In this document: positions 2,202 through 63,300 of the stretch, one piece after another
Position numbering within the stretch: the stretch's first letter is position 1
Layout: every line of letters begins with the position of its first letter
Origin: Lingula anatina
Taxonomy: Eukaryota > Animalia > Brachiopoda
Reading direction: 5' to 3'
Assembly: GCA_051362555.1 (NCBI GenBank)
Contig: CM120642.1
Coordinates: forward strand, 27,094,001 to 27,158,000
Length of the DNA stretch: 64,000 nt
Position numbers and translations under genes: made by a program
Notes under the pieces: generated by a model
Databases searched by the model: none
What the model was told of the DNA's origin: nothing
The model's input: only the letters and a program-made list of their open reading frames with translations

Positions 2202-3631
2202 TGTATCATACGTCTGTATTCTGCAATATAGCTGGGTAAATCAAGTCACTTAGATACAGGAGTTATGTTGTTGGCATATGATCCTTGTCTAGCATACATC
2301 ATAACATATTGTGCCAGTTTGCAATGAGGTGCCTAATATTGAAATTTTAAAGAAGTATTTGGGTTTTAAAAAAGTATCCTTAAAAGCAATATAATTTTTT
2401 TTTTTACCTAATGAAAAAAGCGCATGTTTTTGAACAGATCTTCAAATGTTACCAAACAAACATTGTTGTTCACTTCAGCAAAACAGTACTATATGGCTTC
2501 TTTGAAACAACAATTTTTATAAACATCTGTTGCATATTATCATTTGAACAAAGAAGCAGTAAAAAAATGTTTACTAAAAAACAAACAAACAAACAAACAA
2601 ACAAAAAACTAACTGCATGATTTTGAACCTAAAACACAAGTGGAATATTTTTTTAATTGGACTTCATGCTTATCTGAGTATCTGCGTGTCATTAATTTGG
2701 ACAAGGTGCATCAGTGATGGCAAGTTTTATCTCTGCATCACAACAGATTTCTCACCATGAGCAGTTAATCCACTTGGAAATATCCAGCCCGATAATTGAA
2801 TATCTCAACAAAAGTGTTCCTGGGATAAGGCTCACCTAGGAGGCTTCTTACCAGACAGATAATTAACTGTTGAGACAGTGTGGCAGACCCATGATATAAT
2901 ACATGGATGAAAAGATAGTGTTTTGATGATGCAAATCTATAATACATGAGCAAGTGCACAGTGCTTGCATTTCACCATTGACAGACTGCAATTTCTGTGT
3001 CATAACTGATCTTTGCAGTTCACTACTGATTTATAAAGACAGATAGACCATTGATTTATAAACACAGGCAGAGCACTCAGGTTGGGCCATTTACTACAGA
3101 CAATCTGAGCAGGTGAAGTGACCCCATTCTTGCACCTGAAAGCCCACTTTCGAAAGCTTCACTGAAACTGGCCAGTCATTTTGCTCAGTGGATTTGATGT
3201 TCACCAATAATTGTTCTGATTTAAAAGTAATGGTAATAAACAGAGAGAAAAAGATATTACATAACAGAAGATAAAATAAAAAAATGACTGAACACTGAAA
3301 TAGAATTCCAAAGATGTTAAATTTCATGGAATATGATATAAATCATATTTCCTAGGTCTAATTCCTTATGGGAATCGCTTACACATTTAATGTCTTTTCA
3401 CAACCACATTTAAATGTCATAGAAAATGACATGGCAAATTGCATGCACCTTTTTTTTCTTCAGACACTCACAACAGGAAGCAGCTTCAAGTGAGAGTGTA
3501 GTGAGTGTTAAAAACATAAACAGTTCTCACTCAGTACAAGTGGCTTTTCAGCCTTCATGGAAAAGCCCTTGCACATCTTATATTTCTTTTCATAAAATAC
3601 AATGAAATGTAATAAATATCACACTACTTAC

Positions 3632-6600
3632 CGCATTAGGCATTATCAGCTTCAATTGAGCCTTGTTCCGCACAGTTCCATTCACTAAGGGGACGTCTGC
3701 TTTTTGAACTGTCGGATCTTCCACAGGTTTCCCCGACTCTTCCCTGGGTGCTCTGCTTTTCTCCTGGGTTCCAGTGGCAGATCGACCATGTTTGCGGTTT
3801 TTTGAAGACAAAGTTGGTGAAGTGAAGGCATTGGCAACAGCAGTTTCAGATTGAGAAGACCTTTGAGTCCGTTTTGGTGACTTAGAGGAGGAGTCGCTGG
3901 TGGAACGAGGACGTTTTCTATGATGCTTGCCGTCCCGTTCCCTGTGGTGATTATTACTACTGCTACTCACATGGTGCTTTGTGGCTGATGAATTGTCAGT
4001 GACTGGTTCTTTAGACTGGGACGATGACTTGCGGTCCTCTTGATGATGACTCCTAGAATCCCCGCCTCCCTGCCATCCAGCTGGATGATGGGAACACTTG
4101 GTTCCACCAAATTTTGTCCCATTTTCTTTCACATCGCGTCTTTCTTCGTCGCGTAATCGCACGCCATTTTTGCCTGCCAGTTGCTGCACTTGCTGAGGCG
4201 GTGGGAATAAGTTACTTGGAGGTTTTGTGGCCACTGGTGTCGCGGGCATGCTCTGCACACCTATCAGATTTTTGGCCTCTCGCGAGTGTAGCGTCTGCTG
4301 CACAAAGTCATAGTCTCCCAGAACGTTTTTGATCTGTTGTGTAGTGGAATCTTCTCGTACGATCTAAAATAGTAATAATAAAAAATTTTACTGACTACAT
4401 GATGACATTCTTTAATCAGAGTGTCCTATGACCAACTTCTTTTTTTCAAACCTTGAATTTCTCTCCTTTTTTATTGGGGGAGGGCAGCTGTTTCATCCAC
4501 TAGTGTCAGATCAGACTAAATAAAGAGTCTTCGTAGAATTTTTGACACTTTCTATTGAATTAATAAAACTGAAACCTACTGTTTACACATTTACGTTCTT
4601 TAAATTTGATTTTAAAAAAATAAACACAGACATTGGGAATAGGTCTGGTGCTGTGTTTCTGTTGATTCTGGTTTTGTGATATTAGCAAAGAGCAGACGGT
4701 TTCATTATTTAACCTCCTGTCTAGACACAACAGTCTGCTGCCACACATCACCTGCCGTCTATTTTCCTGGGACTATATTCACAATATTATTAATACAGTC
4801 TGTGTCACAAACTCTACAGCTTCTTGGCCATGAGGACCACCAGTTTCGTATCTAGAATCAACTGGTCCAAATTAAGATTCACTGGTCCAAATGAAAATTC
4901 CAGTCAGACCGGACATCTATCCATATTACAAATTGATTCTTGTAATAACAAGACCTTGATTTTGTCAAATCTTACTGGAGCACTTTCCCTGTGGAGACAC
5001 ATTCAAAAATATTTAAGGAAAATTGTGGAAATAGTTGAATTTTTTAATTAATGAAAAGATCAACTGGCTGTGTCAGATCACTTAATTCACACGTTCTGAA
5101 AAATCTTCTGGTTCACATGAAATTTTTACTGGCCATGGGCATTGAACCAGTTGCTAACTTGGCAGACTGTTAATACTTTTAGTCTTCATTTTTAGGCCAA
5201 AAGCTCCATCTACTTTGACTCAGTATAAAAATACCAGCACGTGACTCTGATAAACTAGACGTCCTTATGCAACGCTAAAGATACAGTTATACAAGCATGC
5301 ACATTTTACTTATGCAAAAATGATTATCACATAGGAACTTATGCAAAAAATGATTCTCACATAGAAAATTATGTATGAATGTATCCCAAGCAAAGAATCA
5401 CACTTAGTTTCCAAATTTACAATCTCTCACAAGTAACATTTATCAGAGATGAGGCTACAGGTGTTATTGGTTTTAGTTGTCTCAAGATCTTAAGCTATTT
5501 GGTCAAAACAACTTCTACTTAAACTTTGGAATTTCCATATCTGCCTGCACCATATTTCACCCAATCAGTTTTTTCTTGGAGAGGGCTTAACTTCACTCAA
5601 CCATGATAGCGCATTTTCAGAGAAAAGAAATCCATAATTCATTCAGAGGGATGAAAGTTCATTAACCCAAATCCAGTAAATATTTTGTTCTGCATTGACA
5701 ATGAGTGACTTGTACCTGACATGGCTGCTGATAGTAATCTGATAAATAACTGGCTTAAGTTAATGAATAATTGAAAATACAATAGCAGTGTCATCACAGG
5801 GCAATGTTTACCTTTTTAAGTGGTATCAGCACTCTATCCACCATTGCACCTCAGGTTTTAGGGGCTCATACTTTATTATTTATTTATTTACTTATTCATT
5901 ATTTATTTATTTTTGAAACCTCAGATATCCCCTAGCATATCAAACTATCATATATAAAACAAACATGGAGGTCCAAGAAGGCTAAGACTCACTCATAACA
6001 ACCTCCTAATTTTCCTCCAAATTTTCACAAATCACATATTTAACACAAACAAATCAGTTTCAATTTTTTTTTTTTATCTTATTTGTCCCATTGCTCACTG
6101 AGATCACTTCTGGTGTGACTTCCTAGTATACAGGTAGTATCACATTAGTGGCCGAGTTCTCCAAGGTGGCAGTGGAAACTAGGGCTTCTTGTTATTTATA
6201 CCTTTAGGCCCATGCACGTACAAGTGATTATCTGGAGAACACCAAGAGAATGTGCAGCCTGCCCCAACAACAGGTGTAGCTCAGTAGCTGTTACTGCTTC
6301 AAATCATACACTTTCAATAAGGAAGTGAACATTGATATGCCTGTTTATCACACTAAACTAATCTGGAAGTCAAAGGCAAGTGCTTTTCTTGCAGTCTTCC
6401 ACTCCTTTTAATAGCCTGTCAGATGAACTGTCTTGATGATGGTTTTTAACAAGCCATGGTTCAATGACCCCAAGAGATCATGAGTACAAAATTAGATCAC
6501 ATAGAACCTGAAATAGAAAGTGCTTCGACCGAGTAACATAGGATAACTGGCATACACAGGAATATTCTATAACAAGAAGCTTATGTGAGGTTTTAAGTAC

Positions 6601-9050
6601 ACAGACTTAGTATATACATCTAAATTTCCAGTGAGCTATCAGTGAGCTATAAGGTGTCACTATCAAATACCAAAACTATGTTAAATGACATTAGATACTA
6701 GAATACTTCATGTAAATTCAATGGATGAACAAGCTGGAACTGCATGTAAACTGAACAAAACTCCTCTTACTTGTGACCTCCAGGGTGACGAACCTGGATG
6801 AACTGCATGTGATCTATAGGATATAAACACTATAACTACACGTGACCCTATGTCAACTTTTCTGGAAATTTTTGGAAAAAAAAAACTGAAACTGCCTGTA
6901 ACCCCAAGGGTGAACAAACTGGAACCATACCTATTCTATACCTACTCCCTACAGACCACCTTATGAGACAGTGGCAGATGTGCAATATGACTCAAATCCT
7001 CAATGAAGTAGACCAACATTAAATGGGCCAATAAATCCAAAGTGGCATTACAGTATGAGACCATTCCCAGAGACTATCGTACTAACTTTGGATTGAACTA
7101 TCTCCAAGGGGATTCTCCCTAAATTGCAATTAACTTAAGTACCTTAGATGTCTGTCATGCCTACTGAAGCTGATAAGGGGTAAATAACTATTGTTTAGAA
7201 GCTTTAGTAGGCATCCCAGACATCAAAGCCACTTAAGCTGAAAGCAATTTAGTAAGAAACCCCATGGAGATGGACTGACCCTGTTAGATTGATCTAAGGA
7301 TGGGAACCCAGTCTATGGTTTCCAGGGCTTGTTGGGGTTGAGACAGGAGGAAAAAAACTGGCCATTTCATTCTATTAATTATTTTCCTGAAATATCTTTT
7401 TTCGTGACTTGTATATCCAAGTAACTTTCCGTACTTGTAATTTTATCAGTCCCTATAATATGAAGAACACTGGGCTAACACTCACATAGAGATAAATCCT
7501 TAAATCACTAGTCCCTACCCCAAATATTGTAAACAAGGGCATTTCTTAGAATCTATTTTTTTCATCTGTAAATAAAAACAACTGAGAACTGAAAAGGGGA
7601 GGAAATATCTGTCATGTCCACCTGACTTCATATCCACAGCTCCAGGCATTTATTTCAACTTACACAACGCAAAAGTTTGCCTGGAAGTGATATTATGACT
7701 AAAAGATGACCACAGACACAATACAAAGGTGGTTCACTAGGTACTCCTTGTCTTTTACCTTTAGTGATCTTAAAATTGGATACAGGCCAAGAGTACAGTG
7801 ATTTTTCTCCAATCAACAGCCAAGATAGAACTTGTTTACCTCCAATATTTTGATATCTCTCTTGAGCATCTTCACCAGGGAATGAGGCTATCCAAATGGA
7901 CAGCCTCTATTCGGGAGATATATTTGCATCACCCCCCCCCCCCCTTTTCTACATGTCTTACTTCTTCTCTGGATATACACCAAGGTCCAAAACATACTTC
8001 TCAATAGAAATATTTTTACCATTTACATCTCCTCTGGTAAGTTTGTCACACTCACTCGTTAATTGACCTTGCACTCTTCAGCGTTACATGCATACATGAA
8101 TGTTTCCTTCATTAAATATCAATGAATCCAGTTAATTCATAACGATGACAAATGCCATGCCATATTTTTATATAGACCTTGTTCGTAAGAGTCTCAATAA
8201 ACATGAATCTAACAGCTTGATCATACATAATAGAGCAGCGAAAGCAAAATAGCAATAAGATATTTATCACTTTGATTTCCCATTCACTTTTTTTTTTCAA
8301 TGCAGCAGTGGTTATGAAATTCACAGCTACACCTGTCGTGTTCACACAGGTGAGCATGCTACCTCGAGTGCAATCTAAGTCAGAGTGACATCCTTGAAGC
8401 ACTTTGTTATATTAGTCACATTGGAATTATAGACATCGTTTTTATTTTATTACTTTTTTCACACTGTTCCATGTAACATAACTAAATTTCAAAACCAGCT
8501 TGATCATATCTTGCTTGCTAGCCTTATAAATGTTCCAACAGGGTCTGACCTTCATTTGTCTTCACACAGAATAGATGGCGCCAATAATATGGAAGCTAAT
8601 CTGGTCTGCGGAATGTGATGTACTTCACAGCTATATTTGTTCAACGAAGTCGAAATTAGCCCACCCAAAACACGGATGAAACACTGACATGGATACTTTA
8701 TGCAAGACTTCCTTTATATTTTAGTTTGCTTTTTTCCCATACACAGATATATTACAACAAATTTTTGGCATGTATTTTCTGTCACCTTATTGAATATTTC
8801 AAGCAAATATTCTTTGGTGCAATTGAAAAAAAAAAGCTAACAGTAAAACTGCTTTATCCCAAATGTGCCAAAAAAATTTTTTAATGCAATACTAGGTTAT
8901 AAATGTACCTATCAATGAATATGGTTTGTTCATTCTCATTAACCTGTACATAGTAATACATGAGTAAGAGTACACCTGACAGCTTGATATCATTTCAATT
9001 ATTTTATGGCAACTGACAAGAGCCTGCAAGTCTGGACCTCAAGTAATTTA

Positions 9051-9104
<54 letters not shown>

Positions 9105-12100
9105 GGGCTAACACTGAGATCTCTTGAAACAGTTAATACATGAAAACATATTCTATTATATACATTAGAAAACAATGCTGATATTAGTGTTTGATAAACT
9201 GAAGTCCATTTCACAACAGAGGTTCAGACTGAAAAACATGTCAAACTTTTAGACAGGAAATTAGTATCATAAACACCATCTTCTTCCTTTTATAAAACAG
9301 GTGCAACGTTTCATTGAAATGGCCTTAAAGTCATATAATTATACTGATTAAAATTGGGCCAAAAATCCACTGAATAATTTGGTCTAAAAATTAAGACTAA
9401 CTCAAAGAGTAGTGATAAAATTTGTAATATGCTGACCTTGACCGGAATGCCAAAGAGAGGCTGTTGGATCTGTCCCTCCTTCTTCTGCTGGTGGCATGCC
9501 TCAAGCCTGGCCAGTCTGGCTTGTTCCCTCTGTGCTTCACGATCATTACTACTGAAAGTAGAAAACAATGAAAAAAATATCAGGCCCACAGCTACACAAT
9601 GTCAAGTTTCCATGTAGTTGCTATGCAAGTCTTTGTTTTATCTTTCACTGAACAATGTATGGAACCATTGCCAATAATGGCCATTCAGTTGTAAAGAATA
9701 GACAAAGAATAAAATCATCAGGTCAATGTAAACAAATCCAGATTTCTGAGTTCCACAATTTTTGTAAGTACCTGAAATTATAAAATAGAAAGCCAATGAC
9801 AATCTGGAAAAGTGTCAGGCATAGGAGTGATTAAAGAAGCAAAACATATAATCAGGTTCCAATTTCTGTACCTCATAACTTGTAAAACAAATCAGGCACT
9901 GTATATGCATGAAACAAGAAGAGAAGACGGCATCAGGGCTCCGTAACTCAAAAGCATCGCAAATTGCGAAAAGCGATATCACCTTTTATTTCGAGGCTAT
10001 TATAAGGGGCGAGTATGGGCGAGTTATGGAAGCGAGATGCTTGCGCTCGGTCGCAATGTGCGATGCTTTAGAGTTACGGGGCCCAGGTCTACAAAGCACC
10101 AAGCGGCCCAGTCAGAATGAGTTATGTCAACCTAACTAAAGCTCAACGACTCCACAGGGACTCTTGCTGAATACAATCAGATTAATAGCCTAATTCACCT
10201 CCTCTTGTCTCTGTGGAGTTTGTGCACCTTAGCTAGGTGGACATTACTCATTCTGAACAGTTCTTTAGACTGGTATGTTATCCCTGTTGACTCCTCTTCA
10301 AGACTCCAATTAAATTGAATGCTACTGATTCAACAGTGATCAATCATAACTTGATGGACAAAAGAAAGAAGGAATTCCCAGGTCAATGTTGAATCGAGGC
10401 GACAACTATTAACTGAACCCAATGCCTGTGTTTCTAAATAAAGCAAAACTTGCGTCAGTAATGGTCATAGTAATGGAAATTGCCACTTTTCTCCACTTTT
10501 ATTTCAATTTTCTATGTTGTTATTTCATCTCTCTGAACACCTGAAGGTTTTAGTTACCCCAAAGCTGGTCTTAGAAAAGACTTTAGTGAACCTAACTAAG
10601 GTGCATTTATTAAAAAGAAGCTTATAGGCTCACCACCGACAAAATAAAGACCAGAATCTAAATTCAGCATCATCTGGAGATGGCCATGTTACTGGAAAGG
10701 GCAACGGCCACTGTTTGTCTATTTGTGTTTCTTTGTTGCTATTTCAACTCAGTGCAAAAATCCTGCCATAAGGTCAAGCCTATGGAAAGACTCTTACATT
10801 ACCAGTATGGTTAATATATTTGATCCCACGTTCCAATATGAAACAATCAAATAACAGCAGCAATCTGTAGGAGGGTACATCAGCAGTGGTGTAAGATTAA
10901 TGGGCCTTGCATGCAGACAGACTGGTTGAAGTCAGGTCGATGGCACATCAACACAAAATGAATTACAAGTTTGAGCAATTCCAGCAAACAGTTTGCTTAT
11001 AATAACTTATTGTGCACAATCTACAGGTTAGAGTTTGTCACTGGAACTATCTATCTAATGACCTTTTATAAACCTGCACATCTGGAATGCTATCAGTCGT
11101 ATAATAGCCTCATTGTGTCATAACATTTTAAAACATAGAATAACTATGTAGCATAGAAGATATATCACTAAATGACACAAATAAAGACAGCTCAAACAGA
11201 AGACAAATTGTCCCTTTATTTTCCTGAACATAAACCTGTCCTTTGGAGAAAATTTTACTACTGAAACACCAATAACATGCCTCAGATCCAGTTCAACCTG
11301 AACTTCCACTATGTAAATAATGATTAATCAATAGAAAAACATTGGACCAGCGTGTGCTTCCCCTTTCCGTGGCCCTGCGGGTTTCCTGCTCAGATTTTTT
11401 TTCCTTTTCTCTTCGATCATACATTAAATACAAGGCAACCTACTGCAGCAGTTACCTGCACCAGTGAAGATTGGAAGGAAACGCTGTAAATTACTTCTGC
11501 TAATGGATAATTAACACCCCAATGAAAAACCAATTGCTGTCTGTCGTTGGGGAAATATCTCTTTTAATGAGGCACTTCTCTCAAACTCAATAAAACAGTT
11601 GAAATTTGCCCACCTAAGCCAAGCTGCACTCTATTCACCCAGGTGACCTACTGCTGGGCTGGTGACTAGTTCATATTACTATTACTACATCAATGTCACA
11701 CAGATTGCAAGCCCTTCACTTGGGAATAACGATATTCATGCTTTTTTTTTCTCAAGAATTTCATTAGATCAAGATTATCACGTCAATTGCTTGGTGTGAG
11801 CGGATGCACTCAAAGCAAGGGCTGCAAAAAGCTAGGCAGCAAAAGAGCCAAGGTCTTTTCTGAACAGGAAATAGATCAAATATTGTGCAGTCTTCAATCC
11901 CTACTTTCCATGATTTATTCATCAATGAGTTGTAATTTTTTCTAAAGAAATCTTTTTACCAAAAAAAAAAAAGGAAAAAAAAATCTTAAGACTGACTCCA
12001 GTTTCACCATTTTACTAAAAAACATCAAAGAGAACAAGAGACGGACTTCTCTTCTTTGCTTGTGACCAATATCTTGGAGCTATGGAAATATTATACACCA

Positions 12101-22700: not shown

Positions 22701-25700
22701 TATTAACTCATAAATTACAAACACTCCTCATAAATAAAGATTTTTTTAAAATCTATTACTGGACAGTAGACCCTTACAATTTGGCCCAGATGATGACATT
22801 GCATGACTATGTTTACTAGAATGAGAACAGCTCCACCTGTGTTCTCTAAAGACTGAATTAGGTCTCTGTGTGGAAGACCCAATATTGCAAACTAAACTGT
22901 TAGTCCAGTTAATAGATTTTAAAATCTTTACTTATGTAAAATACGATGGGATGACTAACCTATCCAGTATTACAATCACTTCCAATATCATGATTGCATG
23001 ACTGATTACAGCATCCACAAACATGACAAAAATGATATCATGAAAATATTTTTACCTTCAACCTCACATTTAGTTGATGCACTACATCTTTTGATTTCTT
23101 TTAACTCATACACTATTTAAGATCATGACTGCTCAGATGATGCAATGGTCTGTTTTGTATAAAGGACAGGTAATCCAGAGTTTTTAAAGATGTCCCAGAG
23201 GTATTTTCAAATATATACATGTGATGGCTAAAATTGCTACTGAGCTTCATTCAACTAGACATGCTATCCAAAATGAGATGCACATGAATGTGGACAAAAC
23301 AACAAAAATGATGTTGAAGATCAAGAGATGCTAAATCAGCAATAAGTGTGGGAATGGGAGGTAGTGGATGAAAAACACCAAATACCAGTCACATATGATG
23401 ATTATTAAATACAAGCTGAAAATAATTATATACTACTAGCGTGTGGCCAACCTGGACATAGGCTCACGTCAGTCTTGATGCAGGATTATGTCCAGGTCTG
23501 ACACAAGCTAACGGTATGAAATATTTTCAGCTTTTGCTAAATAATTATTACATATGCTCTATCTACCAAACTCATGAACATTCTTGACCAAATATGAGTC
23601 TTTAGCAAAAATTTAAAAATTATTAACTGCCACTATTTTCCATTTTAAGTAGTTGGGGGGGGGGGGATGCAATTTCATTTAAGGAATAACTCATAAGATA
23701 GTAAATGTCAAGCGTCACACTACCATGTCACTTATCTAAACTAAATATCACCTAGATCTCCCTCAAATGACGTCACCAACGTCATACAATGATAACAAAC
23801 CAAATTGCTTAGGCACTGGTACATCAATGCGAACATTTTCAGAAATGATGTGCGTATGTTATGCCATTTCTTAACTCATTAAAATACGCAACCACCTTCA
23901 GCAAATAACAACATGAGTTATACCTTGGTGACAGTTTTGTCCCTACATTATGTTTTATTAATCGCTGGTCGAGTAATGCAGCATTACAGACACGTAAACC
24001 TTGGATGCGTGAAGAACTAGAGCTCACCCAAACAAGGAAATCCCAGCTACTTTACACAGCAAGCATTTAAATCAACCATTAAAACACATTCCATGGAGAA
24101 CTTGGAACCATTTACATTGACTATAAAACCACAGATTCTGTCAAATTATCAATGTAAATTCTGTTCAAAATAACTAGTTCTGAGTATGTTTGTTAAAGGG
24201 ATATAAACTCTTCGTATGAAATCTATATTTCACAATAAAAACATTGTAAATAACTCATAGAAATATAATATATTCTCTTTTACGACGAAAACGGCAATTA
24301 TAGCTATTATTCTGATATCTGAGCTTGTCTTCAGATCACGTGACCTCCATTGATGGCTATACTCTGCTATAACCTCTTAAGAGATTTTAACAAAAAACCA
24401 AACTTTTTAGAAAAAAACCAGGGACTAAATTTGAATGTAAAAATGGATTCATTAACCATTGGTAAGTATGGGAAAATTGTTGTTTACTCCAGGAAAATTC
24501 ATTTTTTGGCCAAAACGAAGAGTTATTATCCCTTTAAGCTTAAAGCACTGTTCCTGAAATGACACTGATATTAGATAAATATGTATATCTTCAACTTTAT
24601 TGAACTAATCTAGTTGATGATGGACACCTGGAATGATACATATAAAGAGCACTATTAGATATCTAGCTATCTCCTTCCCCCGGGGGAAGTTTTATACGGG
24701 CATGTATAAAACGTCACTTATATGTCAGTCCTCATTCCTCTTTTTTTAAAAGTCCTCTGTCTCCTCCCCTGGGGAGCTTTTAAAGTTTGTGAAAATGGGT
24801 CCTCCATAGTTCTTTTCAAAAGTCAATTGAATAAGGAAATTGAAGCAACAACAACAACTTTTAAAAGCTATATGCTAAAAGAAAATCAAATTAAATATCT
24901 AGTTAAAGTCATTTAAAAAAGAAAAGTCAAGTATTATGAGACTTCAAGAAGAGTCCCTGGTTGAAGCTGGTTTCCAAGTTTCCTGTATGTCAGTCTCTTT
25001 AGAATGACGGCTTGGTCTGGATGGAGTAAGCATTTCTGTGGTTCCTGGCTTGTTATGAGGTAGCAAACGGGCTAATGCACGTGGCAAACCACCACTGGTG
25101 CGCTGTTTGGTAACAGTAGGGGCATCCTGGCCACTGGGATCTGGGGCACTCAAATCTGGCTCTTCAGATAATGGTGATGGAGTAGAAGCATCCTGGTATG
25201 GCACAGTAGGTTCATCTGGATTTTTTGGCTGTGTGACCTGTACAGGGTTGTCATGGGTTTGCTTCTTTCCCAGATTAAGGTCACCAGGTTCGTGATGGAC
25301 CAACTTAGTGGGTTGCTCAGGCACTGTGTTCTCCTTGAGGGCCATCTCAATCATGGGGAAGTAGTCACTGGTAACAAATGGAGTGAACTTCCTAAGATGC
25401 TGCCTGTTGCGGATAGTCACCCTGCCTGAACCATCTACTTTGATGACATACTGGTGGTGCTGTCTTACTTCAATTACTATTCCAGTTCGCTCCCACTTCC
25501 GGGGATAATTTCCCACAAGGTTCTGTAAGTACACATGATCTCCAACCCTCAATGGTGGTAAGATCCTAGTATGCTCACTCCAGCGTTCATGCTCTCTGGA
25601 ATGACGTTTTGCAAGTGCTCTTTCTCGATGTGACATCAGCTCTGCCCATGTTTCGTGTGGGGAATACCTTCCCATGGGTATTGGAATGGCATCGCGAATA

Positions 25701-28700
25701 GGCCGTCCAAATATAATTAATGCTGGGGAGGCCTTTGTTTGTGGGTCAATAGAATTTCTGTACATAAGCATGGCTTTCTGAAACTTGTCAACATCAAGGG
25801 ATCCTGTTGGGGCTATATTGTCTGCAAGCATTCGCTTCACAGTTTTGACAGCTATCTCAGCTCTACAGTTAGCATGAGGGTTGGCAACTGACGAAATTCT
25901 GTGTTTAACACCCCAGGTTTTAAGAAATTCTTGTGTTTTCCCCGCAGTAAATTGTGGTCCACCATCTGAGGTTAACTCCTCTGGTATTCCAAATGTGACG
26001 AAAGTTTCACGCAATCTTCTGATTAGACCCTCTGCGCCTCCTTCTGCTTTAAAAGCCATTGGCCAATTGGAATATCGGTCGACAATGACAACATAATCTT
26101 TACTGTTGTATGTGAAGTAGTCACAGCAGATCATTTGGAAAGGGTAGTCTGGTTGTTTAATATCAGATGGTGGCTGCATCGGGTTTGATTTAGCCATGCG
26201 ATGACAATGTGCACATTGGTCCCTAACTCTAGCAATGTCAACTGAGATATTGGGCCAAAAAACAGAGTCTGCTGCTCGGGACTGCATAGCACTTATACCC
26301 TGGTGAGCTGCATGGAGGGCATTGAGGATTGGTGTGCGTAAGGCCCTTGGGATAACAATTCGTTGACCCATGAGTATCACTCCATCAACAACACACAGGC
26401 TTGCTGTGTGACGGTGGTATGGACGTATCTCTATGGGGAGTTCTCTGCAATCTTCTGGGATGCCTTTCTCAAGGTATTGCATTAGTGCAAGTAATGTTGC
26501 ATCTGAAGAGGTGGCATCTCGGACCATATCCCAGGTGACAATAATGTTAGCAGCATCCAGTGAGGCAGACGCAGCAGCAATGGTGCAAGCATCATCAGCA
26601 AAGTCTGTGTCTGCTGTGTCTTGGTATAGACTAGCCAATGTGACCTGTGGAGGCACAGTCATGTAGGATATGGTGTCACTGTCAGATGGTTCATTTGGTA
26701 GATGCATTCTACTTGGCCGACCAGCAGGGTGTCTGGATGCTGCATCTGGGCCGGGATTCTTCTTCCCTGGGACATGCACTATGGTGAATCTGTATGCAAG
26801 TGTCTTTTCTTTGAGATTGAGTAGTCGCCTGTTGTGAATTTCGGTGAGTGACCTATCATTTAGCACCTGAACCAGAGGTTTGTGGTCTGTGGCAACAATC
26901 AAATCTTTACAGCCCAATACATAGTAGCGAGTCTGATGCAATGCATAGGCCACGGCCAAGGCTTCACCCTCTATGGGTGCATATCTGCTTTCTGCTGGAT
27001 GGGTAAACCTGCTTCCTACCAAGCATAACTTCCAGCCATTGTGACAACATGCTGGAGTTTTGGAGGTGCATTGGCAATACTTTTGCATCAGGAAGAATCC
27101 AACTCCATCAACAGACCAATCAGTGGACAGACATGTTTGGCGGTTTGGATCAAACAAACGCACTCCTTCTTTCATCTCTTCTATAATGACTTCTTTGGAT
27201 TGGTGGAACAGGTTGTCCAACTCATCTGTCCATTCAAATTTTGTGGACGGCTTTAGGAGCTTCCTGAATGGCTTCATCTGACGTGCCATTGAGAATGCAT
27301 AAGCGCCTTGATTAATGAGCCCAAACCAGGCTCGGGCACCACTGATATCTGTAGGTGTTGGGAATTTCCTTATGGCATCCATAAATTTGTCACTTGGTTG
27401 TATGTTCGTAGGTGTGATTGCAAGACCAGCAAATTCGACTGCATCTTGGGCGAACTGAAATTTCTTGGGATTCAAGGTGATACCGTTACGTGCACACAGG
27501 TCTAGCCACTTGCATGCCTGAAAGAATGCCTCTTCAACTGAGTTTGCCCACATGCATGTATCATCTACACACTTGACTTTATTAGGGAAGTCTGTGATTA
27601 TGGCATCAAATCTCTGGTTGTAAGCATCTCCACTGGCTAAAAACCCCTGAGGTGCTACCTTGTATCTGTAACGGCCCCATGGTGTGATGAATGTTGTGAT
27701 ATGCCGGTCCTCCTCCCTAATAGGCACAGAGTGGTACCCATTCCAGGCATCTGTCACGGTTTTTTTTACACCCTGTGGGATGCGGTTTGCTAAGTGAAAG
27801 GGGGTAGGCACATGGTGTGTTTGGCGGACAGAGTGGCGGTTCAGTTGCTGTAAGTCTACTGTTCGCCTAGGAGTGCCATCGGCTTTTCCCGTTACTACCA
27901 TGCGGGAACACCATGTTGTTGGGGTATTTGGGCTGACTCGTTCAAGGACCCCTATTCGGACATCCCTTTCAAGGTCAGCAAAGACCCTCTCTTGCCAGTG
28001 AATTGGAACAAGTGCTGGCTTATGGACTGCGACCGGTTTGGCATCTGGATCCACATGAAGTTGGAGCGGCTCACACTTCATCAGGGGTAATGGCTGGTGT
28101 TCACACGTATTAAATGTTGTTGCTCCATAATAGTCGAGGAGCCAATCTTTAAGCACTTCAACATTTTCTTCCAAAGCCTTTAAGCCAGGGGGAAGAGATG
28201 TGGGTAATGGTGGTGGCTCCTCTCTGCGCCTTGGACATGTGCATGGAACTTCGTCAGTGGGGCCAATTGAAGCTGTGTGTGTTATATGCGTGGCACTCGG
28301 AAAATCTGGCTTAATTATCCCCAAGTCTGTTAGTGCCTCTCTGCAGAGGAAGGCTTTCTCAATGGATTCAGACACGTAACACATCAAGCGAGACGTTCTG
28401 ATGTGATTGTTTTCATCTTTGACTGAGACACTGACAGCAATGCCACCCATAACACCCAGATTCTCTCTGATGGCACCTCGCATCACAAGTTTAACAGGCA
28501 AGAGGTCTTCTTTCCTTATGCCTAGAGCCATAGCCGACTTCAGTGGTATTATGCTGCTCTGACACCCTGTATCCGCAATCATGGACATATTGACTGGTTT
28601 AAGTGTTGACGTGTCTTGCATCGGATACCCAAAAGCAGCATGATCTGCAGGTAGAGGGGTCATTCTCACTAAAACCATTGGGTGCGGTTTTGATGGGCGA

Positions 28701-31700
28701 GCTATCCACTGGCCGTCAAATATGTGGTGATCAAGTAATGCAGTCTTGTTGGTTTTATGTCGCCTGGGCGGATTGTTTTCGGAAGCCGTACACAGCTGAT
28801 CAAATACATAATTGGTGTCAGCGTGGTCCGTACCCTTAGTTTGACCTGTCTGAGTGCGTGGTTTGGGCGGGTTTCTATATCCTCTCCCTTGCTGGCATAA
28901 CCTTGAAGACTTATCCCGGTGGCCCCATTCACCGCAGGTGTTACATTTGCTGCAAAGGTCTGTATAATGTCCTTTGACACCACATTTGGCACACATGAAA
29001 CCCCATGCCTCACACTTCCTGGCTCTTGCTCTTCTATCGTTTCTTGGTCCATGGGCAAGTCCACCACATGCCCAGCATTTTGGTTTCCCATCAGTTTGAA
29101 CAAGTTGTGATTTCTGAACATTGCTGGCAGCATTAGCATTGTCTCCGACTGCACTCTTGGTCACTTTTCCCTGTTCCTTCTGAGCGATAAAGGATACAGT
29201 TTCCTCTAGCGTCCTGTCTGTTTTAGGGTCACCCAATAAATCTGACATAATTTCTGGGTCAGCGATGCCTCTGATGAGGTTGTCTTTTATGATTTCATCG
29301 CTGTAGTCAAACATATGGGTGCAGCCTTCTTCTTTACATGTGGCTGTATATCGACACAATGCTGCTTGGCCTCTCAGGCTTGCCAAAAATGTTCTAATAC
29401 TGGTTCCTGGAGTTTGAGTCATTTTACTCAGTCGTATGCGATGAACCAGGGTACTCTCATCTTTGACAGCTAGTCTTCTTATGGCAGCTAGGAGGTCTGC
29501 CTCCGCCATATTTGCAACATTGTCTCTAAGATCTCGCATAATGTCTGTGCGTAAGTCTTGATCACAACAGTAAAAGAGGGCGGTTGCTACCATGTTTTCA
29601 GCAATGTTCATACCAGCCTTGTACATGTTCCACTGCCTGGTGAATGCCGACCACTGATCTGGATCAGACCCTGTTGAAATTTGTGGTGGATCCAGCTTGA
29701 GTTTCTGGGGCGCCGGCTGAGTCGGATGGGCAGTCTGGCCATGCATTTGGAGAGCTGCAGTTAAGGCTCCTGCGAAGGCAGCGTCAAGGTCCTGTGACTG
29801 CCAGTCACAACCCACCACAGGACATTGCAGTTGGGGCATCCTGTTTGTTTTGAAGACTCTACAAATAATGGCTGAAAATCTAACTCGGTTATCTACACAG
29901 TGGCAAGGGAAATCTGGTGTCCGTCATAGATAAATATGTATATCTTCAACTTTATTGAACTAATCTAGTTGATGATGGACACCTGGAATGATACATATAA
30001 AGAGCACTATTAGATATCTAGCTAGATATCTTCAAGAGACAAGGAAAATATAATTGGCTGCCAAGCATATCTTAAATTGAAAAAAAGATCAAGTATAATG
30101 CATGTTGTGATAGGGTCCATTTGTCCTATATTCTAACACCACATGATACTGAACTTATCATAACTTTATATAAAAATCCAGAGAAAAATTCAAACAGTGC
30201 TCATCTCTCAATGCATTGGTTGTTCATCTTTGATACTAATCCCCACCCCATCCTCTCCCAGATAGTGAAAATGTATGGTTTTGGTGGAGATTTTGGTATC
30301 TTCTTTCATGAAGATGACCTTGACAATAGACCGAACCAGAGATAAACACAGGACCACAGCCAGTGATTTCAAAGGAGAGGGGTCTTTTTTTTTTAAAGTT
30401 GACCTTTCACTATGAAACCCCTGTGTGCCAAGATCAAATTTTGTCCAGAATGGACCTTTTTCCAACAGAAAAGGCAGTTTTGGTTTGACCCCTCCCCCCC
30501 CCCCCCAAAAAAAAAACCCTTGGCCTGAAAAAAAAAGCATTTAGGATATCAGCAAATCCTAATCAAACATCTTCAGAAAGCTATCAGTGTTAATGACCTC
30601 AATAATCCTACTGGAAACAACTGATAATCATAACCATTTGACAAAACATCTAAACCTGATCAAAGTAATGAACAGCCAAAATGTATTTTACCAGCTGAAG
30701 GATACCTGAAAGATGGAGAGAACATTATCATTAGAAAGTAATTGGCTGTGACCAACATATGATCAAGTTGTCAACTTATTTCTTCTTGCTATATCCTGGG
30801 GCAACTGAGTTAATGGTAGATACATAACAAGCATGAAAATAAACAAGTTATGTTGACTTTTATCCTTTACCTCAGAGAATCCAGACAATACAAGTATTTA
30901 GATTTAGTGCATTGCATTAACTAAGAAAATGCATTAAATCAGAGCTGAGAGTTCAATTTATTTGGTTAGAACATATCTGCTATTTAAAACATGATGCCAA
31001 AATATCCAATCATCTCATACAAACAATGTTTTTCATTCATGTAGGCAAACAAGAAAAAATACAGACACACTCTATATATGGTTGTGACCTATTTCTGACT
31101 ACAGAGAAAAGACCATTTAATTTGACAAACAAGAGTGAGGTAAAAATCCCAAGAACACAATGTCATCAGCAAGTCATAACTTGGGACTTCACCCTTTTCT
31201 TAAGAATTGGCATACCAATGACCCTGTTAAATAAATCCATGTATTATCATAAATAAGGTCATTCAAAATGGCAGCTAGATACAGCCAGTATATATTTTGT
31301 CCCTTTAGGAAATTGTGCATACATTCATCTCTTCTGAAATATTTGTCATATAGATTTTAAAGTAATAAGTAATTATAAACAATATAATCACATGTTGATT
31401 CACAATAGAATAAAATATGCTTGTTTTAAAAAGCATCTGTTTTTTTGAATCTCAAACTGGGACATCTCCTAACTTCACAACTCAAAAGTGAAATAACATA
31501 TTATCCCAAAGCTAGGAGTAAGAGTACATTTGTTGTTCAATGCATGTAACAAATTTCAGTCATTCACGTGCAATGTTTGCTCATTACCGATAAAGATGTT
31601 AACAAATGCATACATAAAAGTTTTTGGACTGACAGTTATGTCAAAATGTTTCCACCTAAGAAGAGAGGGGCCCAGTTCAAGTTCATCCCAGTATTATTCA

Positions 31701-36036: not shown

Positions 36037-39100
<3,064 letters not shown>

Positions 39101-39116
39101 GTTGGAAGGCTGTACA

Positions 39117-39124
39117 GGAAAAGG
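39117..39124 (-). promoter_or_regulatory. 5' TOP / TCT initiator of RPS3A (CCTTTTCC)
   Basis: Pyrimidine tract 17-24 nt upstream of the ATG, typical of ribosomal protein genes. Confidence 0.75.
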
Positions 39125-39371
39125 TCGAATTGTTGTGTATAAAACAAGGAATCAGTATTGGGCGAAGAGCCCATATGATATCGAAATATTAACCCATCAA
39201 ATAAATGGTGTTCATTTGATGAACAAAAACAATAATCTTTATGTAACCATAATCCCATTAGGCATTCATTTGCATATATATATAACTAAAGTTTCTGCAT
39301 TTATCTCCCTGTGCCAAGCTTTTTCTAATGATCGTCTCAAGCGTACCCAATGTCTTCCGGTTGTCAACAAG

Positions 39372-40154
39372 ATGCAGGGGGAACCACAGCCGGCACAGCA
39401 AAATCAAACGATTCAGGCAGAACTACCAGCATATGAACTGCCGCCTAAATGGATACCATTAGATGAGGTATGTGCAAAACAAATCACCTCTTAATGTGTA
39501 TGGTAACAGTTAGAGTAATCTAGACATGACAGCCAAGTTTAACACTAGTGGAAATTGTATCAGTTCACTTAATGACTTACTGTACTGTATTGAGTTACTG
39601 GCATTGGGTATTGGTACAGTTATCTGACTTGAATTATCTGTGGTAATTTTGAAGCTAAGTTACCAGATTTGTAGTGTTTTACTTGTTCTTTTGTCATGTG
39701 AAAAAAATACATTTAAGTCACTTGAAACTCAAAAACAGTGCAAAATAAAAAAAGCAGCAAACTAATGCCAGTGATGTAAACTGCTATATTTCATGAAAAA
39801 GGCTACCGCTACAACTGTAACTTAATCAGAATAAAGTTACTATATGAGAAAGCAGATATTTGCTTCTAATTTTCTTTGATTGTGTGCAGCAAATTTGCAT
39901 ATTTACATGTTAACATTTGTCATATTAACTCTTATAGAGACAGAATCACCCAGACTACAATAATGATCTCAGGAAGTTTTTGCCAAGAGCTCTGAAACTC
40001 AGAAGAAATAAAACTACAGATCAGGTGATTTCACTTGCATTCAATTTGATTATAGATATTATGCAAATGGCTATTAAAGTTTTGCCCATCACTGGAGAAA
40101 ATGTGTTAACATATACATGTAGATTGTGTATATCCCTGTAGAATAATAAAATTA

Positions 40155-57356: not shown

Positions 57357-60237
57357 ATGTCATTCAGTACTGGGGATTCCGTGCTTGATTCAACATTGAC
57401 CGACTGGCTGCGATGGGACCAGGTATACATTAATTATTAATTTTTTGTAAATTGTCTGTTCTCTGCATCTAAGTCTTACTCCTATAACATGCACGGTTTA
57501 GGGAGAGATATCTGCTTAGGTACCAAAAAAGTCAATAAATTAGAAAAAGATTCGCTTTTCCAGGTTGTTGAACAGTGGTAATGAACGGAATGAAGCTTAG
57601 TTCTACATGTAAATACGATGCACAAAGGTTTTATGTTTTTAATTTTAATAAATTGTCTTGGATAAGCTGCTTCCATATTAATGCTAAAAATTTAATGCCC
57701 GTATTTCGTGACTGGCTGTAGTCATATTTTGAAATGCTAGAAATTTTGGATATCCAAACGTTTACCCTTAACTTTTGCAGAACCCTGAATCCAAGTCTTT
57801 CATTGAGAAACTAATAGAAAGTAATAATGTGGATGAACTGCGTAATAGATTGCTGAAGAGAATGGAATTTGGAACTGCAGGTAAACTTTATTTTCTTAAC
57901 TTAAAAGATTATTATTATGTATTTTATTTAGTTATTTATTTTTATTTACATATTTTAAAATTTATTTTAAGTGATAACAGCTGTAATTAAATTCTCTTTA
58001 AAGGCAAAAAAGGACAAGTTACATTGTTTAACATCTCTTTAAGAAGTTATTTTAGTTATTTACTTTATTTGTAATTGGCTTTTTTATTTATTAATTTTTT
58101 TATTTATCAAGGAAAGTGCATTTGGGATGCATGGGAGTATGAACATTTCAAGATTTTGCAGAGAGAGTCATTTTATAAGAACATTATTTTGTCATCTTTA
58201 GTTATGACTACTTACACATAAGACTTTCTCATACCATGTACTGTATTTAAACCCAATGTTTCCAATGTCAGGTTTGCGTGCAAAGATGGGAGCTGGTAAC
58301 TCTATGATGAATGACTTGACAATCATACAGACATCACAGGTAAGATGTACTAAGATTGCTGCAATCTTTGTCTTCCAAAGTAAAGGCCTGCAGAAAACTC
58401 CATCCCTAACAAAATGTTAATAAAATTGAAATCTATAGAAAATTAATAATAAAATTAAATTTAAGCTGAAATTACCACTCTCAAACAATTGTCCATTTTA
58501 GTTGGCATGGTTTAAAATTTCAGATTATATAGTGCATATTTTTAGATAATAATGTTTCACAATTTAATTTTTAATCCTCATTTGTTCACAGTGCTAAGAT
58601 TTATGTGGAGTTTAGTTTTTAGGAACTTATTACTATTATTATATGTCTGTAATGTTTCAGATGTTCTTTGTAAATGTGCATCTGAAAGAAATGCTTATTT
58701 TTAACAACAAAATAGGCATCTTAAATTTCTTTATTATGATAGGAAAATATTCTTATTTTAGGGATTGGCAATGTATTTGGTCAGCTCTTCTCCCCATGTA
58801 ATAGAAAAAGGAGTGATGATTGGGTTTGATGCCAGACACAATAGCCAAAGGTTTGTAACAAATACTGTTGCATGAGCATGAATTTTGAAGCTTATCTATT
58901 GGTCAAGAAGCAGTGATGCAAAGTCCATTTTTCAGTGAGTTGACCTCCTAGTCTGTCATCTTGGATCTCCATGGCCACTGCAAATGCTAAATATGTCACC
59001 AAGAAGTTCTCGGTGTGTCTCAGTTATTTTCACTTATCTTAAAAATTCATGGTTGTGTAGCAAAGCAGTTATAGACTTTGTGTTTCAGTCATCTCATGTC
59101 TAGGTTCAACCCAAAGCCAGCCAAGAGATAGTGATCAGTTTTAGACTGCAACTAAGACCCCATTTCCAGAGATTAGATCGATCTACTTTAGATCGACCTA
59201 ACTCCCTGGGGGTTCACGCTAAATAGCTGTCAGCCGAGTGGACACAAAAGTTAATTACCCCCTTACAGCTTGTAGTAGGCGGGATGGACATTTAAGCCGG
59301 ATTATCTGACAGTAATCTAGTGAGACTCCCCGCGGGGATAGATCGATTTAAAAGCAGCCTAAGTAAGATATCACAAAAAATGGCAAGGTCGACGACTAGG
59401 GTGTGAAGTATAATCTGGCGCCAGTGTTTGTTAAATACATCTTTTACTTTATATGATATGAGCTCTTAACTATATTGTTTCATTAAAGAAAGGCATTATT
59501 TCATTTGTTTACCAATTAAATCAGAAATAAACCTTTCAACAAAGTTCCCTGGCACCAGATTGTGGTTTGTATTGTTGAGATTATATTGGCAGTTACAGTA
59601 TCAGTATATTAGTTACAATATCAATGCTCACATATTTTCTAGTATACCACTGACATGAAGCTAGACAGTAATTTCAATAGTAGCGAGTAATATCTGTATA
59701 AAGTCTTGTCTTACTAACAGTCTTGTCCGAGTTACCTTCTGGAAAGACTTCTTTCATATACTGTATAAGCTATAGTTCAATTTATAACGAAAATTGCATA
59801 GCTACACTGGAAAAGTTCCAGTATTAAGAAAGTCTACCAACTACATGTATTAAGTGAAGTAACAGAAACAGTTGTGTGTTTGATGTAATAGCAGTATTTT
59901 CTGCAATTTCAGCTCTATGGGCAAATTGATTTATGACATGATTAATCTTTCTTCCATTGCTTTATTTAGGTTTGCACAGCTGGCTGCCATTGCTTTCCTT
60001 CAGAAGAACATCCCTGTTTACCTATTTTCACAGATATGCCCAACACCTTTTGTTGTAAGTTAAAGCAACTTTTAAGATACTTTTTAGTAGGCACTTCTTT
60101 GGTTATCAGACTAAGAGTACATTTGCAAAATAAGTCGGAAATATAAAATAAACCTACCTGGGTAGGAATAATAGTGTTTTTTCATACTTGTAAAAATGTT
60201 TCTAGTAATAAGCAGAAATGCTATTTATCCTTTGGAC

Positions 60238-60311
<74 letters not shown>

Positions 60312-63300
60312 TTATGCCTACAGCCATATGCCACCGTGAAGCTAGGGTGTGTGTGTGGTATTATGGTCACTGCATCACATAACCCTAAGGAGGATAATGG
60401 ATATAAGGTAAACAATTACAGTTTTTCTGGGGTGATATCAGTCTGTATTTTCTTCTAGTCAGATATTGTGAAAATCTCCTGTGGTGTTCATCCGAGGTGA
60501 ATAACATTAGCATTTGAAGAGTAGAAAATTTATTTTACTTTTTTTTTTAGTCCTTTAGAATATGTTGGATTCCAGTTCATGCCATTAGTATCTTTTTTTT
60601 TCCTTTTTAATGTCATACCGTATATTTGATACATACAACTCAAGTGAATAAAATAATAAATGATATTTGTGTTTTTTGTGTTATTACAGGTTTACTGGGA
60701 AAATGGCGCTCAGGTAAGTACATTTTAGGTTAGCGGTTACAATTTCACATCTCCGCCAAGGATATTTTTATAATAGTCCATGAAACCTAAATCTGTATGT
60801 TGTTAAAAGAAATGTAATTTCTGTGGCTATGTTCACCTCAGTTTAACTTCAGGTTCCTGTTTCAGATTATATCTCCACACGACAAAGGGATTTCCAAGAG
60901 TATCACTGAGAACCAAGAACCTTGGCCTGAAGCCTGGAAAACGGACAGTCTGGATAGTAACCCACTTCTTAAGCAACCTTTTGAAGAAATCAAATCCTCC
61001 TATTTCCAGGAACTGCAAAAAATCTGCTTTTTCAAGTGAGCTCTTTAATGATTTGTTAATTTATTTATTAATTTTTCCCTTATGTCTTTTTCCCTTTGTA
61101 CTTTGCAGTTCTGACTTGTTCTATTGTTTAATTGGTTTTATAGGTTCTATTTTATATGATATCAAAATTTCAACAGTCTTAAAGGTTTTCACAAGTACAT
61201 GGACATATTGTTTGAATCAACTTGCAGAGAACTGAACCCATCTTCCCCACTGAAGTTTACCTACACAGCTATGCATGGTGTAGGTTACCTGTTTGCTGTG
61301 AGTGCATTTGAGGCATTTCATTTCAAGCCCTTCACTCCAGTTTTGGAACAGGTAAGAAGAAAAAACTATGAGTGCATTTTGTGTGACAATCAAGAGTTAA
61401 ATAACCTATGGTCATCCTAGACTTTGCCAACTGAGGGTTAAGGATACAGTGTAAAAGGACACCCATATTAATTTTAATGGATATTTTGATTGATGATTAT
61501 AAAGACTTGTGTAGAATCACACCTGGGCCCTTTCAAACAATCAGTTGTGATAATTTCATTCCCAGTTTTATAAACAACCCATTAGTCCCTAATAGATAAG
61601 CAAGGTGCACTAGTTTACTCCAATGATTAACATGCATACTTTCTCTTGAAAGATAGTTCCTGACCCAGAGTTCCCAACAGTGAAGTTCCCAAATCCTGAA
61701 GAAGGGAAGAGTGCACTGGTGAGCTTAAGGACACATTCCCATGGACACCATCGGTCTACGTAGATCAGTCCAACTCTCTGGGGACTCTCGCTGAATGCAA
61801 TAAGTTTTTAACAGATTAACACGCCTCCTCCTGATGTCAAGTAGAATACAGAAAAGCTGCTGATTATGCTAGAATGTTGGAAACAAGAGGGGGAATGTCA
61901 TTTAGTCAAGTTGATTGCACTCAGCAAGAGTCCACGCAGAGTTGGGTCAATCTACTTAAATCAGTGCAGGGTCTATGGGAATGGGATCTTAGACACCTGA
62001 GCTTCAGAGGTTACTAGATAATAATCTTCATTATCAGTTGGTCTCTGCAGTTATTTCCACTAATAGCAGTGGCATGTTGATAATAGAGTTTAGACTAGGT
62101 TCTGACAGATTTAAATCGATCCATCTGAATCAACCTTACTCCCTGGGGTTCATGCTAAATTGCTGTCAGCTTCCGGGAGCCAAGCGCGCAAGAAAGTTAA
62201 TTGCCCCCTTACAGCTTTTAGTAGGTGGAACAGACATTTAAGCTGACAGCAATCTAGTGAGACTCCCCAGGGGGATAGATCGGTCTAAATATCTGTGGGA
62301 ATGGTCTCTTAGTTTGCAACAATCTTGGAAATTCAGGGTGTAGGTAGGTCTTGCTTTGATGAAAGATTTTTTTATTAATGACAAATAAACCACTGAATAG
62401 GTCATTAAATACATTTCTAGCTCCCTTCACTATGTACAATATACACTCTCAATGTAATAAGTGTCAAATTTCTCTTAAAAACTTAAAGATAATAAAAAAT
62501 TTAATGTGAAATTAAGCTAATTCAACAGTTCACAGAAATCATGTTCTTCACATTTGGGGCAGATCAGACACTATATGAGATATTTCTCGTGGTGATTTTT
62601 ATTTGATAAGTAACATGGTATTTATCTATGTTGATCAGGATTATGCCATGAAGACAGCTGATGAAAACCACAGTATGGTGATACTAGCCAATGACCCTGA
62701 TGCTGACCGCTTGGCAGTGGCTGAAAAGCAACCAAGGTATCATGATAATAGTCATCAAAATTTATATTTTAAAGGCTTTTTCTATGTTGTTTATAAGTGA
62801 TATGAAACAGTTATGTAGTTTTAAAATGGTGCTGAATGATTTTGGAAAGGATTGATTATATGTATATTGTGACATTTTAATGAAATATATATTTATCCTA
62901 TTTACAAATTTGGGGGCCAAGGTTTTGAGGTGATTTTTTATAAGGCATTGAAAAAAATATAATTTCAACATGTCAGTTATTGCAGGAATTTTACCCAGGG
63001 ATGAGGTTTTTTTCTACTATAAGCAGATTTCTGAGTTTTTGGGAGCAAAAAAAAAAATAGCCTAGCCATCCCTGTGGACCCCAGGCTACTTTTACTAAAT
63101 GGCAGTCTCATACCTGTTTACCTGAAAGTGTTTGGTATAGGACAACAGTGCTTTTTTATATGTTTTAGTGGAGAGTGGCATGTGTTTACTGGCAATGAAC
63201 TGGGGGCATTGTTTGGATGGTGGCTGTGGTTTACCTTTAAGAAGGCAAATCCAACAGAAACTGGTGAGTTTTGGGATTAATTTTGTAGAGCACAGTATAC

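Follow-up and report, generated by a model that had tools for sequence, protein, structure and literature searches.

The mechanism by which the retrotransposon Tf1 primes itself has been demonstrated (PMC7175516, PMC4600332). Self-priming has also been proposed for Tj1 and for fungal and vertebrate relatives, and it has been predicted for the plant element Tcn1 and for the TAR lineage of Copia elements (Houba and Osr-1) (PMC6317226). In the tubeworm Lamellibrachia luymesi, at least seven elements (LLGY5, 6, 14, 25, 32, 58, and 85) have TA..TA termini, a 5-bp target site duplication (TSD), long terminal repeats (LTRs) of 117-191 nt, and lengths of 5.2-5.6 kb (PMC8220671). In the portions of that paper covered here, the primer binding site (PBS) appears only in the introduction and one legend, and the primer site of the LLGY elements is not discussed. 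Likewise, the covered portions of the mollusc and annelid surveys do not mention the PBS (PMC6238403, PMC8556966). Searches of the literature, which did not cover Repbase, Dfam, or subscription journals, turned up no description of self-priming for any animal Gypsy group other than chromoviruses. Here we describe a Gypsy element located in the window (the whole 64-kb stretch of DNA that was analysed) together with a clade of relatives which, judging from sequence, likely primes reverse transcription with the first 12-17 nt of its own transcript, and which probably gained this ability independently of Tf1.

Structure of the element in the window

An intact Gypsy element of 5,453 nt was found on the minus strand at positions 30024-24572. 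Its features are as follows.

30025-30029, no strand: target site duplication, upstream copy, 5 bp
29927-30024, minus strand: 5' LTR with TAG...CTA termini, 98 nt, identical to the 3' LTR
24944-29839, minus strand: Gag-Pol ORF P0001, single and uninterrupted, 1631 aa, with no env and no chromodomain
28895-29077, minus strand: three zinc-knuckle-like arrays in Gag, read from the translation, one CX2CX4HX4C and two with longer last spacers
26810-27790, minus strand: RT (Pfam RVT_1, aa 684-807) and RNase H (aa 870-1010)
25877-26353, minus strand: integrase, with H2C2 and core domains at aa 1163-1321, lying downstream of RNase H
24670-24681, minus strand: polypurine tract (PPT) adjoining the 3' LTR
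24572-24669, minus strand: 3' LTR, 98 nt, identical to the 5' LTR
24567-24571, no strand: target site duplication, downstream copy, 5 bp

The LTR termini are TA..TA and not TG..CA. In P0001, the knuckle-like arrays are accompanied by a DTG protease motif and by RT, RNase H, and integrase, arranged in the order of Gypsy elements. Because of the LTRs, the TSD, the PPT, and the RT-RNase H-integrase order, the copy is assigned to the Ty3/Gypsy LTR retrotransposons; it is an intact, recent insertion. A multi-knuckle Gag had been noticed from the letters alone.

Exon-like frames are present in the window at 36444-39494 (minus strand), 3590-9601 (minus strand), and 60147-63280 (plus strand), which are putatively ribosomal protein S3a, an AF4/FMR2-family gene, and phosphoglucomutase, respectively. 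The element lies between the first two of these, on the same strand, possibly inside a long first intron. The window also contains an exact 239-nt tandem duplication at 145-622 and two dispersed repeat families (7054-7314/21867-22041/42221-42481 and 48836-49039/59152-59355/62178-62243), and a tRNA search of its 64 kb gave none.

Complementarity between the PBS and the LTR

The features around the 5' LTR that concern priming are the following.

29973-29983, minus strand: LTR segment predicted to serve as self-primer, with 10/11 positions complementary to the PBS
29972, minus strand: T just 3' of the primer segment, facing the terminal LTR A (29927), the same pair in 9/9 elements
29951-29956, minus strand: AATAAA in the 5' LTR, downstream of the primer segment (3' LTR copy at 24596-24601)
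29916-29926, minus strand: predicted primer binding site without TGG, directly after the 5' LTR
29889-29895, minus strand: leader TAGATAA, complementary to the U5 end, not conserved among relatives
29981-29986, minus strand: YCA(+1)NDT motif common to all nine clade elements, with a putative function, A 29984 being the favoured predicted start
29986-29991, minus strand: TCATTC, second initiator-like candidate, A at 29989, sequence not conserved

The PBS, TGACGGACACC, occupies 29926-29916 and the LTR segment, GGTGTCCATCA, occupies 29983-29973. Both, as well as TCATTC and TAGATAA, had been quoted in an earlier sequence-only reading, and all were present when the coordinates were checked. That reading had described a PBS without TGG and self-complementary to the LTR at 10 of 11 positions, and this description holds: the first 11 bases after the LTR contain no TGG and pair with 29983-29973 at 10 of 11 positions, a match equalled by only 1 of 20,000 dinucleotide shuffles of the LTR. 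The predicted fold contains the primer-PBS duplex. Ten of its positions were examined, and the pair probabilities came to 0.81-1.0 at nine of these, against 0 for the A-C mismatch. The mismatch lies four bases from the primer end, and the same position is paired in the other eight elements described below. Across the junction, the terminal A of the LTR together with the first TG of the PBS makes an ATG, from which a 12-codon upstream frame starts (29927-29889, minus strand); eight of the nine clade elements have this junction ATG.

Search for relatives

The RT-RNase H region gave 2,710 protein matches at an E-value of 1e-20. The best 120 of these showed 62-87% identity, and the named organisms among them were two, Mya arenaria and Mytilus edulis, so that the host is probably a mollusc or an animal akin to one. 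Twelve loci were obtained by scanning contigs from metagenomes and genomes. Six of them (L001, L002, L003, L007, L008, and L012) have an LTR and the bases following it; the others (L004, L005, L006, L009, L010, and L011) showed no recognisable combination of LTR and PBS and were not used. From the genome containing L012 (G001) came two more testable elements, L043 and L044, as well as L045, of which there is a 3' LTR only. The nine testable elements are the window copy, the six loci, L043, and L044. The LTR and PBS of L001 were taken from the 3' end of the contig; L003 was read in two places, at its 3' copy for the LTR and at its 5' end for the PBS. The LTR start of L007 was set by eye. Five scans of viral contigs gave no related locus, 400 further genomes gave no relative, and the ESM Atlas gave only unnamed or generic Gag clusters.

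G001 is filed as a bacterial MAG and holds many animal contigs, with 123 polyprotein-profile matches including four clade members; 39 of its 42 tRNA matches are on one large contig, evidently that of the bacterium. At the 3' end of L001 and the 5' ends of L002 and L008, an LTR is preceded by a PPT and followed by a PBS. These ends may represent tandem copies sharing one LTR, circles, or collapsed assembly; Tf1 forms tandems that share an LTR (PMC11042837). In L007, a 3' LTR copy (5203-5472) is broken by about 190 nt just after the primer segment.

Covariation of the PBS and the LTR segment

PBS-LTR pairing starting from PBS base 1 was found at 9-11 of 11 positions in all nine testable elements, although the LTRs of the first seven are mutually only 31-68% alike. 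At positions 1-10, 87 of 90 cells were Watson-Crick pairs and one was G-U, a share that is partly due to construction because the best-matching primer site was picked for each element, so that controls were needed. Two to four pair types were seen at each of positions 2-11. Pairing with the element's own LTR exceeded that with swapped LTRs, the observed sum of 93 being reached by 2 of 362,880 permutations. As negative controls, the other LTR elements of G001 were used. All 15 have TGG within six bases of the LTR, and their PBS-LTR match was at most 8/11 at any of five offsets. A TG..CA element with a TGG primer site, nested in L043 (G001:C142), served as an internal negative control.

Some qualifications apply to individual elements. 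The PBSs of L001-L003 are mostly shared, and the nine elements therefore correspond to about seven independent sequences. L007 has only 9 pairs in a row. No TGG occurs within the first 8 bases after the LTR in eight of the nine elements; in L043 it occurs five bases in, and the pairing extends two bases 5' of the A of the YCANDT motif. An extra pair between the T after the primer and the last A of the LTR is invariant (9/9). The two LTRs of L044 differ opposite PBS position 2, giving G-U with the 5' copy and G-C with the 3' copy.

Compensatory covariation in relatives had been set as a test of the original proposal, and all nine testable elements passed it; the register in which the primer 3' end faces the first PBS base, likewise read from the window copy, is the same in all of them. 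The PBS-LTR pairing, its register, and its conservation through sequence change are real.

A further part of the proposal, that the U5 end pairs with the leader TAGATAA, stood only in that the 7-nt complement exists. It is present in the window copy alone, is not conserved, and is not beyond chance, since 117 of 1000 shuffled leaders were as stable. At P 0.05, none of the nine elements, four of which have very short leaders, beat its shuffled leaders. The stem is missing from the predicted folds, but this is no evidence against it because the fold program cannot form the stem together with the primer duplex (crossing pairs). Tf1 itself reportedly needs a U5/leader stem, a result ascribed to Lin and Levin in 1998.

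Predicted transcription start site and RNA evidence

All nine elements carry YCA followed by N-D-T, with the A located 12-17 nt from the primer 3' end. The pairing extends as far as this A or the base next to it and stops there in every element but L043; in three elements the pairing to this A involves one bulge or loop. The motif is a putative initiator, with A 29984 favoured as the transcription start and A 29989 as a second candidate. TCATTC, to which the latter belongs, had been taken as an initiator-like mark of the transcript 5' end. It is present, and its A lies 17 nt from the primer end, at the same spacing as the YCAG A's of L002 and L003, but its sequence is not conserved across the nine elements.

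In four RNA runs with the same species label, 153 reads lay along the element and none on the upstream flank; coverage was shallow and strand uncalibrated, and no pile-up was seen at the 5' or 3' end. In runs X1 and X4, nearly all first mates within 24680-30400 were on the minus strand, which would mean antisense RNA if the common stranded protocol had been used in these uncalibrated libraries. Runs X7 and X9 contained a variant of 90-97% identity on both strands.

The same motif can also be read as a splice acceptor. According to this explanation self-priming is real, but the 5' side of the primer is spliced: the YAG is a 3' splice site, and what becomes attached to it is an exon of the host, a spliced leader, or a tandem copy lying upstream, so that the element can do without its own promoter. 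In the window copy, a CCAG supplies the first G of the primer segment. YCAG is found in eight of the nine elements and in the lone 3' LTR of L045, and YTTYCAG in six of the first seven elements, whereas L043 has TCAC, without AG, at the same place. U3 measures only 19-51 nt in six elements. In the first seven elements no TATA is present at -35 to -22, a scan for downstream elements was not significant, and four of the seven have YTRAY 20-31 nt upstream; L044, in contrast, has a TATA box (TATATA) at -31. Exons and spliced leaders often end in AG, and a joined end of this kind would restore the paired G. The AG-free zone, however, is explained by U3 composition (P 0.17-1.0), and no conserved donor was found at the gag end in eight elements with an approximate matrix. 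In addition, the listed reads include no joint into the LTR, and three reads, at low depth, continue from the PPT into the LTR without splicing. We therefore regard splicing of the primer 5' side as unlikely, and consider the motif to be far more probably an initiator than a splice acceptor. A spliced RNA that carries gag alone and has the 3' LTR for its acceptor was also considered and was rejected, as no conserved donor was found.

Proposed mechanism of self-priming

We hold with high confidence that this clade is self-primed. Transcription would begin at an initiator-like A (29984, alternatively 29989) immediately 5' of the paired segment, and the first 12-17 nt of the transcript would then bend back and anneal to the PBS, closing a 37-74-nt loop that contains R/U5. 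The RNase H of the element, whose domain is present, would by analogy with Tf1 cut 3' of the duplex, and RT would then extend straight into U5 and R. A poly(A) hexamer (AATAAA or ATTAAA) is located in the loop, downstream of the primer, in five of the first seven elements, and such a signal would leave an R of about 35-45 nt to serve in strand transfer. The 3' LTR would supply the primer segment anew. Should copying of the primer into the plus strand take place as in Tf1, the PBS would be re-templated in each cycle, and both sides would consequently drift together; about half of Tf1 cDNA keeps a copy of the PBS (PMC11042837).

Phylogenetic position and origin

An unrooted RT-RNase H tree of 33 rows was constructed, 17 of 50 rows (near-duplicates, long branches, and surplus) being omitted; a quick tree included all 50. 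Tf1, sushi, and named Mag sequences were absent from the 33-row tree. The nine elements and four proteins without primer-site data formed one side of a branch with support of 100/100 and a length of 1.27. The row nearest to this clade was L047 (96/90), a TG..CA element with TGG, and the other 11 tRNA-type rows were located further out. L047 and L050 are presumably of the Mag type from their Gag motifs, and the Gag and integrase tail of L047 would make it Mag C/SURL-like. The RT-RNase H score against yeast Ty3 was 114.5 bits for the window element, a low value that may partly reflect its long branch, and 152, 211, 281, and 313 bits for the tRNA-type elements L047, L050, L064, and L077, respectively. 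The LTR termini are TA..TA in eight of the nine clade elements and TA..GA in L043.

As had been supposed, the element is without a chromodomain: none was detected in P0001 or in 29 of 29 full-length relatives, nor among the precomputed domains of the best 120 protein matches. Its description as Mag-like, on the other hand, can be kept only loosely. The nearest row, L047, is of the tRNA type, but the elements form a separate, long-stemmed clade with neither TGT..ACA ends nor a tRNA-type PBS. A placement outside the chromoviruses is suggested indirectly by the low Ty3 score, by L047 as the nearest row, and by the missing chromodomain.

Descent from Tf1/sushi chromoviruses with loss of the chromodomain, or self-priming ancestral to both groups, would do away with an independent origin. 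The geometry is indeed the same, with about 11 nt of complementarity, a PBS abutting the LTR, and a single ORF. However, the window element has the lowest Ty3 score among the five Gypsy RT-RNase H sequences compared, and every more distant row whose primer site is known is, like L047, of the tRNA type. Moreover, the RT motif TTFITPWGRY, common to the clade, L047, and L059, is not of the TAF type, and the clade has TA..TA termini as against TG..CA for Sushi (PMC3601003, Table 3). Common descent with Tf1/sushi is accordingly improbable, and, given self-priming, its origin in this clade is likely to be independent of theirs.

We lean towards a broader scenario in which a widespread clade of marine-invertebrate Gypsy elements diverged from Mag-like relatives primed by tRNA, arrived at self-priming by itself, and had its ends rebuilt. 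The rebuilt ends would lack a U5/leader stem and would comprise TA..TA termini, LTRs reduced to as little as 71 nt (approximately initiator, primer, and poly(A) signal), and an invariant U, which is paired with the final base of the LTR and is perhaps left on the DNA as template for the non-canonical terminal A.

A possible regulatory role of the hairpin

The hairpin might instead be regulatory, hiding the 5' poly(A) signal or controlling translation or packaging, while a tRNA half or another small RNA serves as primer. The poly(A) hexamers in the loop would suit such a role, and half-tRNA priming without TGG exists in Copia lineages (PMC6317226). Regulation, however, does not need the pairing to end always at the first base after the LTR, nor does it account for about seven PBS sequence types each matching its own LTR only; the hairpin would also block any other primer at the PBS. 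This explanation is very improbable. The short match, the AT-rich DNA, and the origin of several relatives from collapsed metagenome contigs could suggest chance or an assembly artefact, but this is refuted by the shuffles, the swapped-LTR control, and the 15 negative controls, and by the presence of both LTRs and a TSD in each of the window element, L012, and L043, so that its probability is negligible.

Comparison with known systems

If this separate animal Gypsy clade does use self-priming, RNase H can be recruited repeatedly to cut out an element's own primer, LTRs of 71-98 nt offer a minimal system in which the requirements of the reaction can be worked out in the absence of a U5/leader stem, and these elements may be freed from control by host tRNA fragments. 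Since standard LTR finders filter out TA..TA ends, LTRs shorter than 100 nt, and elements without a tRNA PBS, the clade is probably under-annotated; a 100-nt LTR minimum was used in PMC8220671. In the searched supplement files of PMC6238403 and PMC8556966, no sequences with the clade motifs were found.

The tubeworm LLGY elements share the RT motifs DAWNGYHS and TTFITPWGRY with the clade (PMC8220671). By these marks, that is, by comparison of motifs and tables and not by a tree, the LLGY TA..TA group belongs to the same clade. LLGY23 has the DAWNG RT motif together with TG..CA ends and a 356-nt LTR (PMC8220671), and could either represent the closest sister group with tRNA priming or result from miscalled boundaries.

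Short LTRs, a 5-bp TSD, and the absence of a chromodomain are shared with the Mag lineage (A, B, and C clades; MolGy3, MolGy11, PolGy1, and LGF7-9). Described Mag elements, however, use tRNA-Leu, -Ser, or -Arg (PMC3286476) and have TGT..ACA ends (PMC3601003), whereas the clade has neither a tRNA-type PBS nor such ends and lies on a long branch of its own.

As in Tf1 and Tf2 of Schizosaccharomyces pombe, Tj1 of S. japonicus, and the Tf1/sushi group, the PBS abuts the 5' LTR, is complementary to about 11 nt of the LTR, and bears no tRNA signature (PMC7175516, PMC4600332). The Ty3/Gypsy domain order and the single ORF are also as in Tf1. Unlike Tf1/sushi, the clade has no chromodomain, TA..TA ends, LTRs of 71-193 nt, and no conserved U5/leader stem, and it is far from Ty3 by RT-RNase H score. 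Moreover, the mechanism has been demonstrated for Tf1, whereas self-priming of the clade is deduced from sequence. In this respect the clade resembles Tcn1 and TAR, for which self-priming was predicted from LTR-PBS complementarity (PMC6317226), although these are plant elements, Tcn1 being in the Tf1/sushi group and TAR being Copia. Because TAR is a Copia lineage, an origin of self-priming outside Tf1/sushi has a precedent (PMC6317226).
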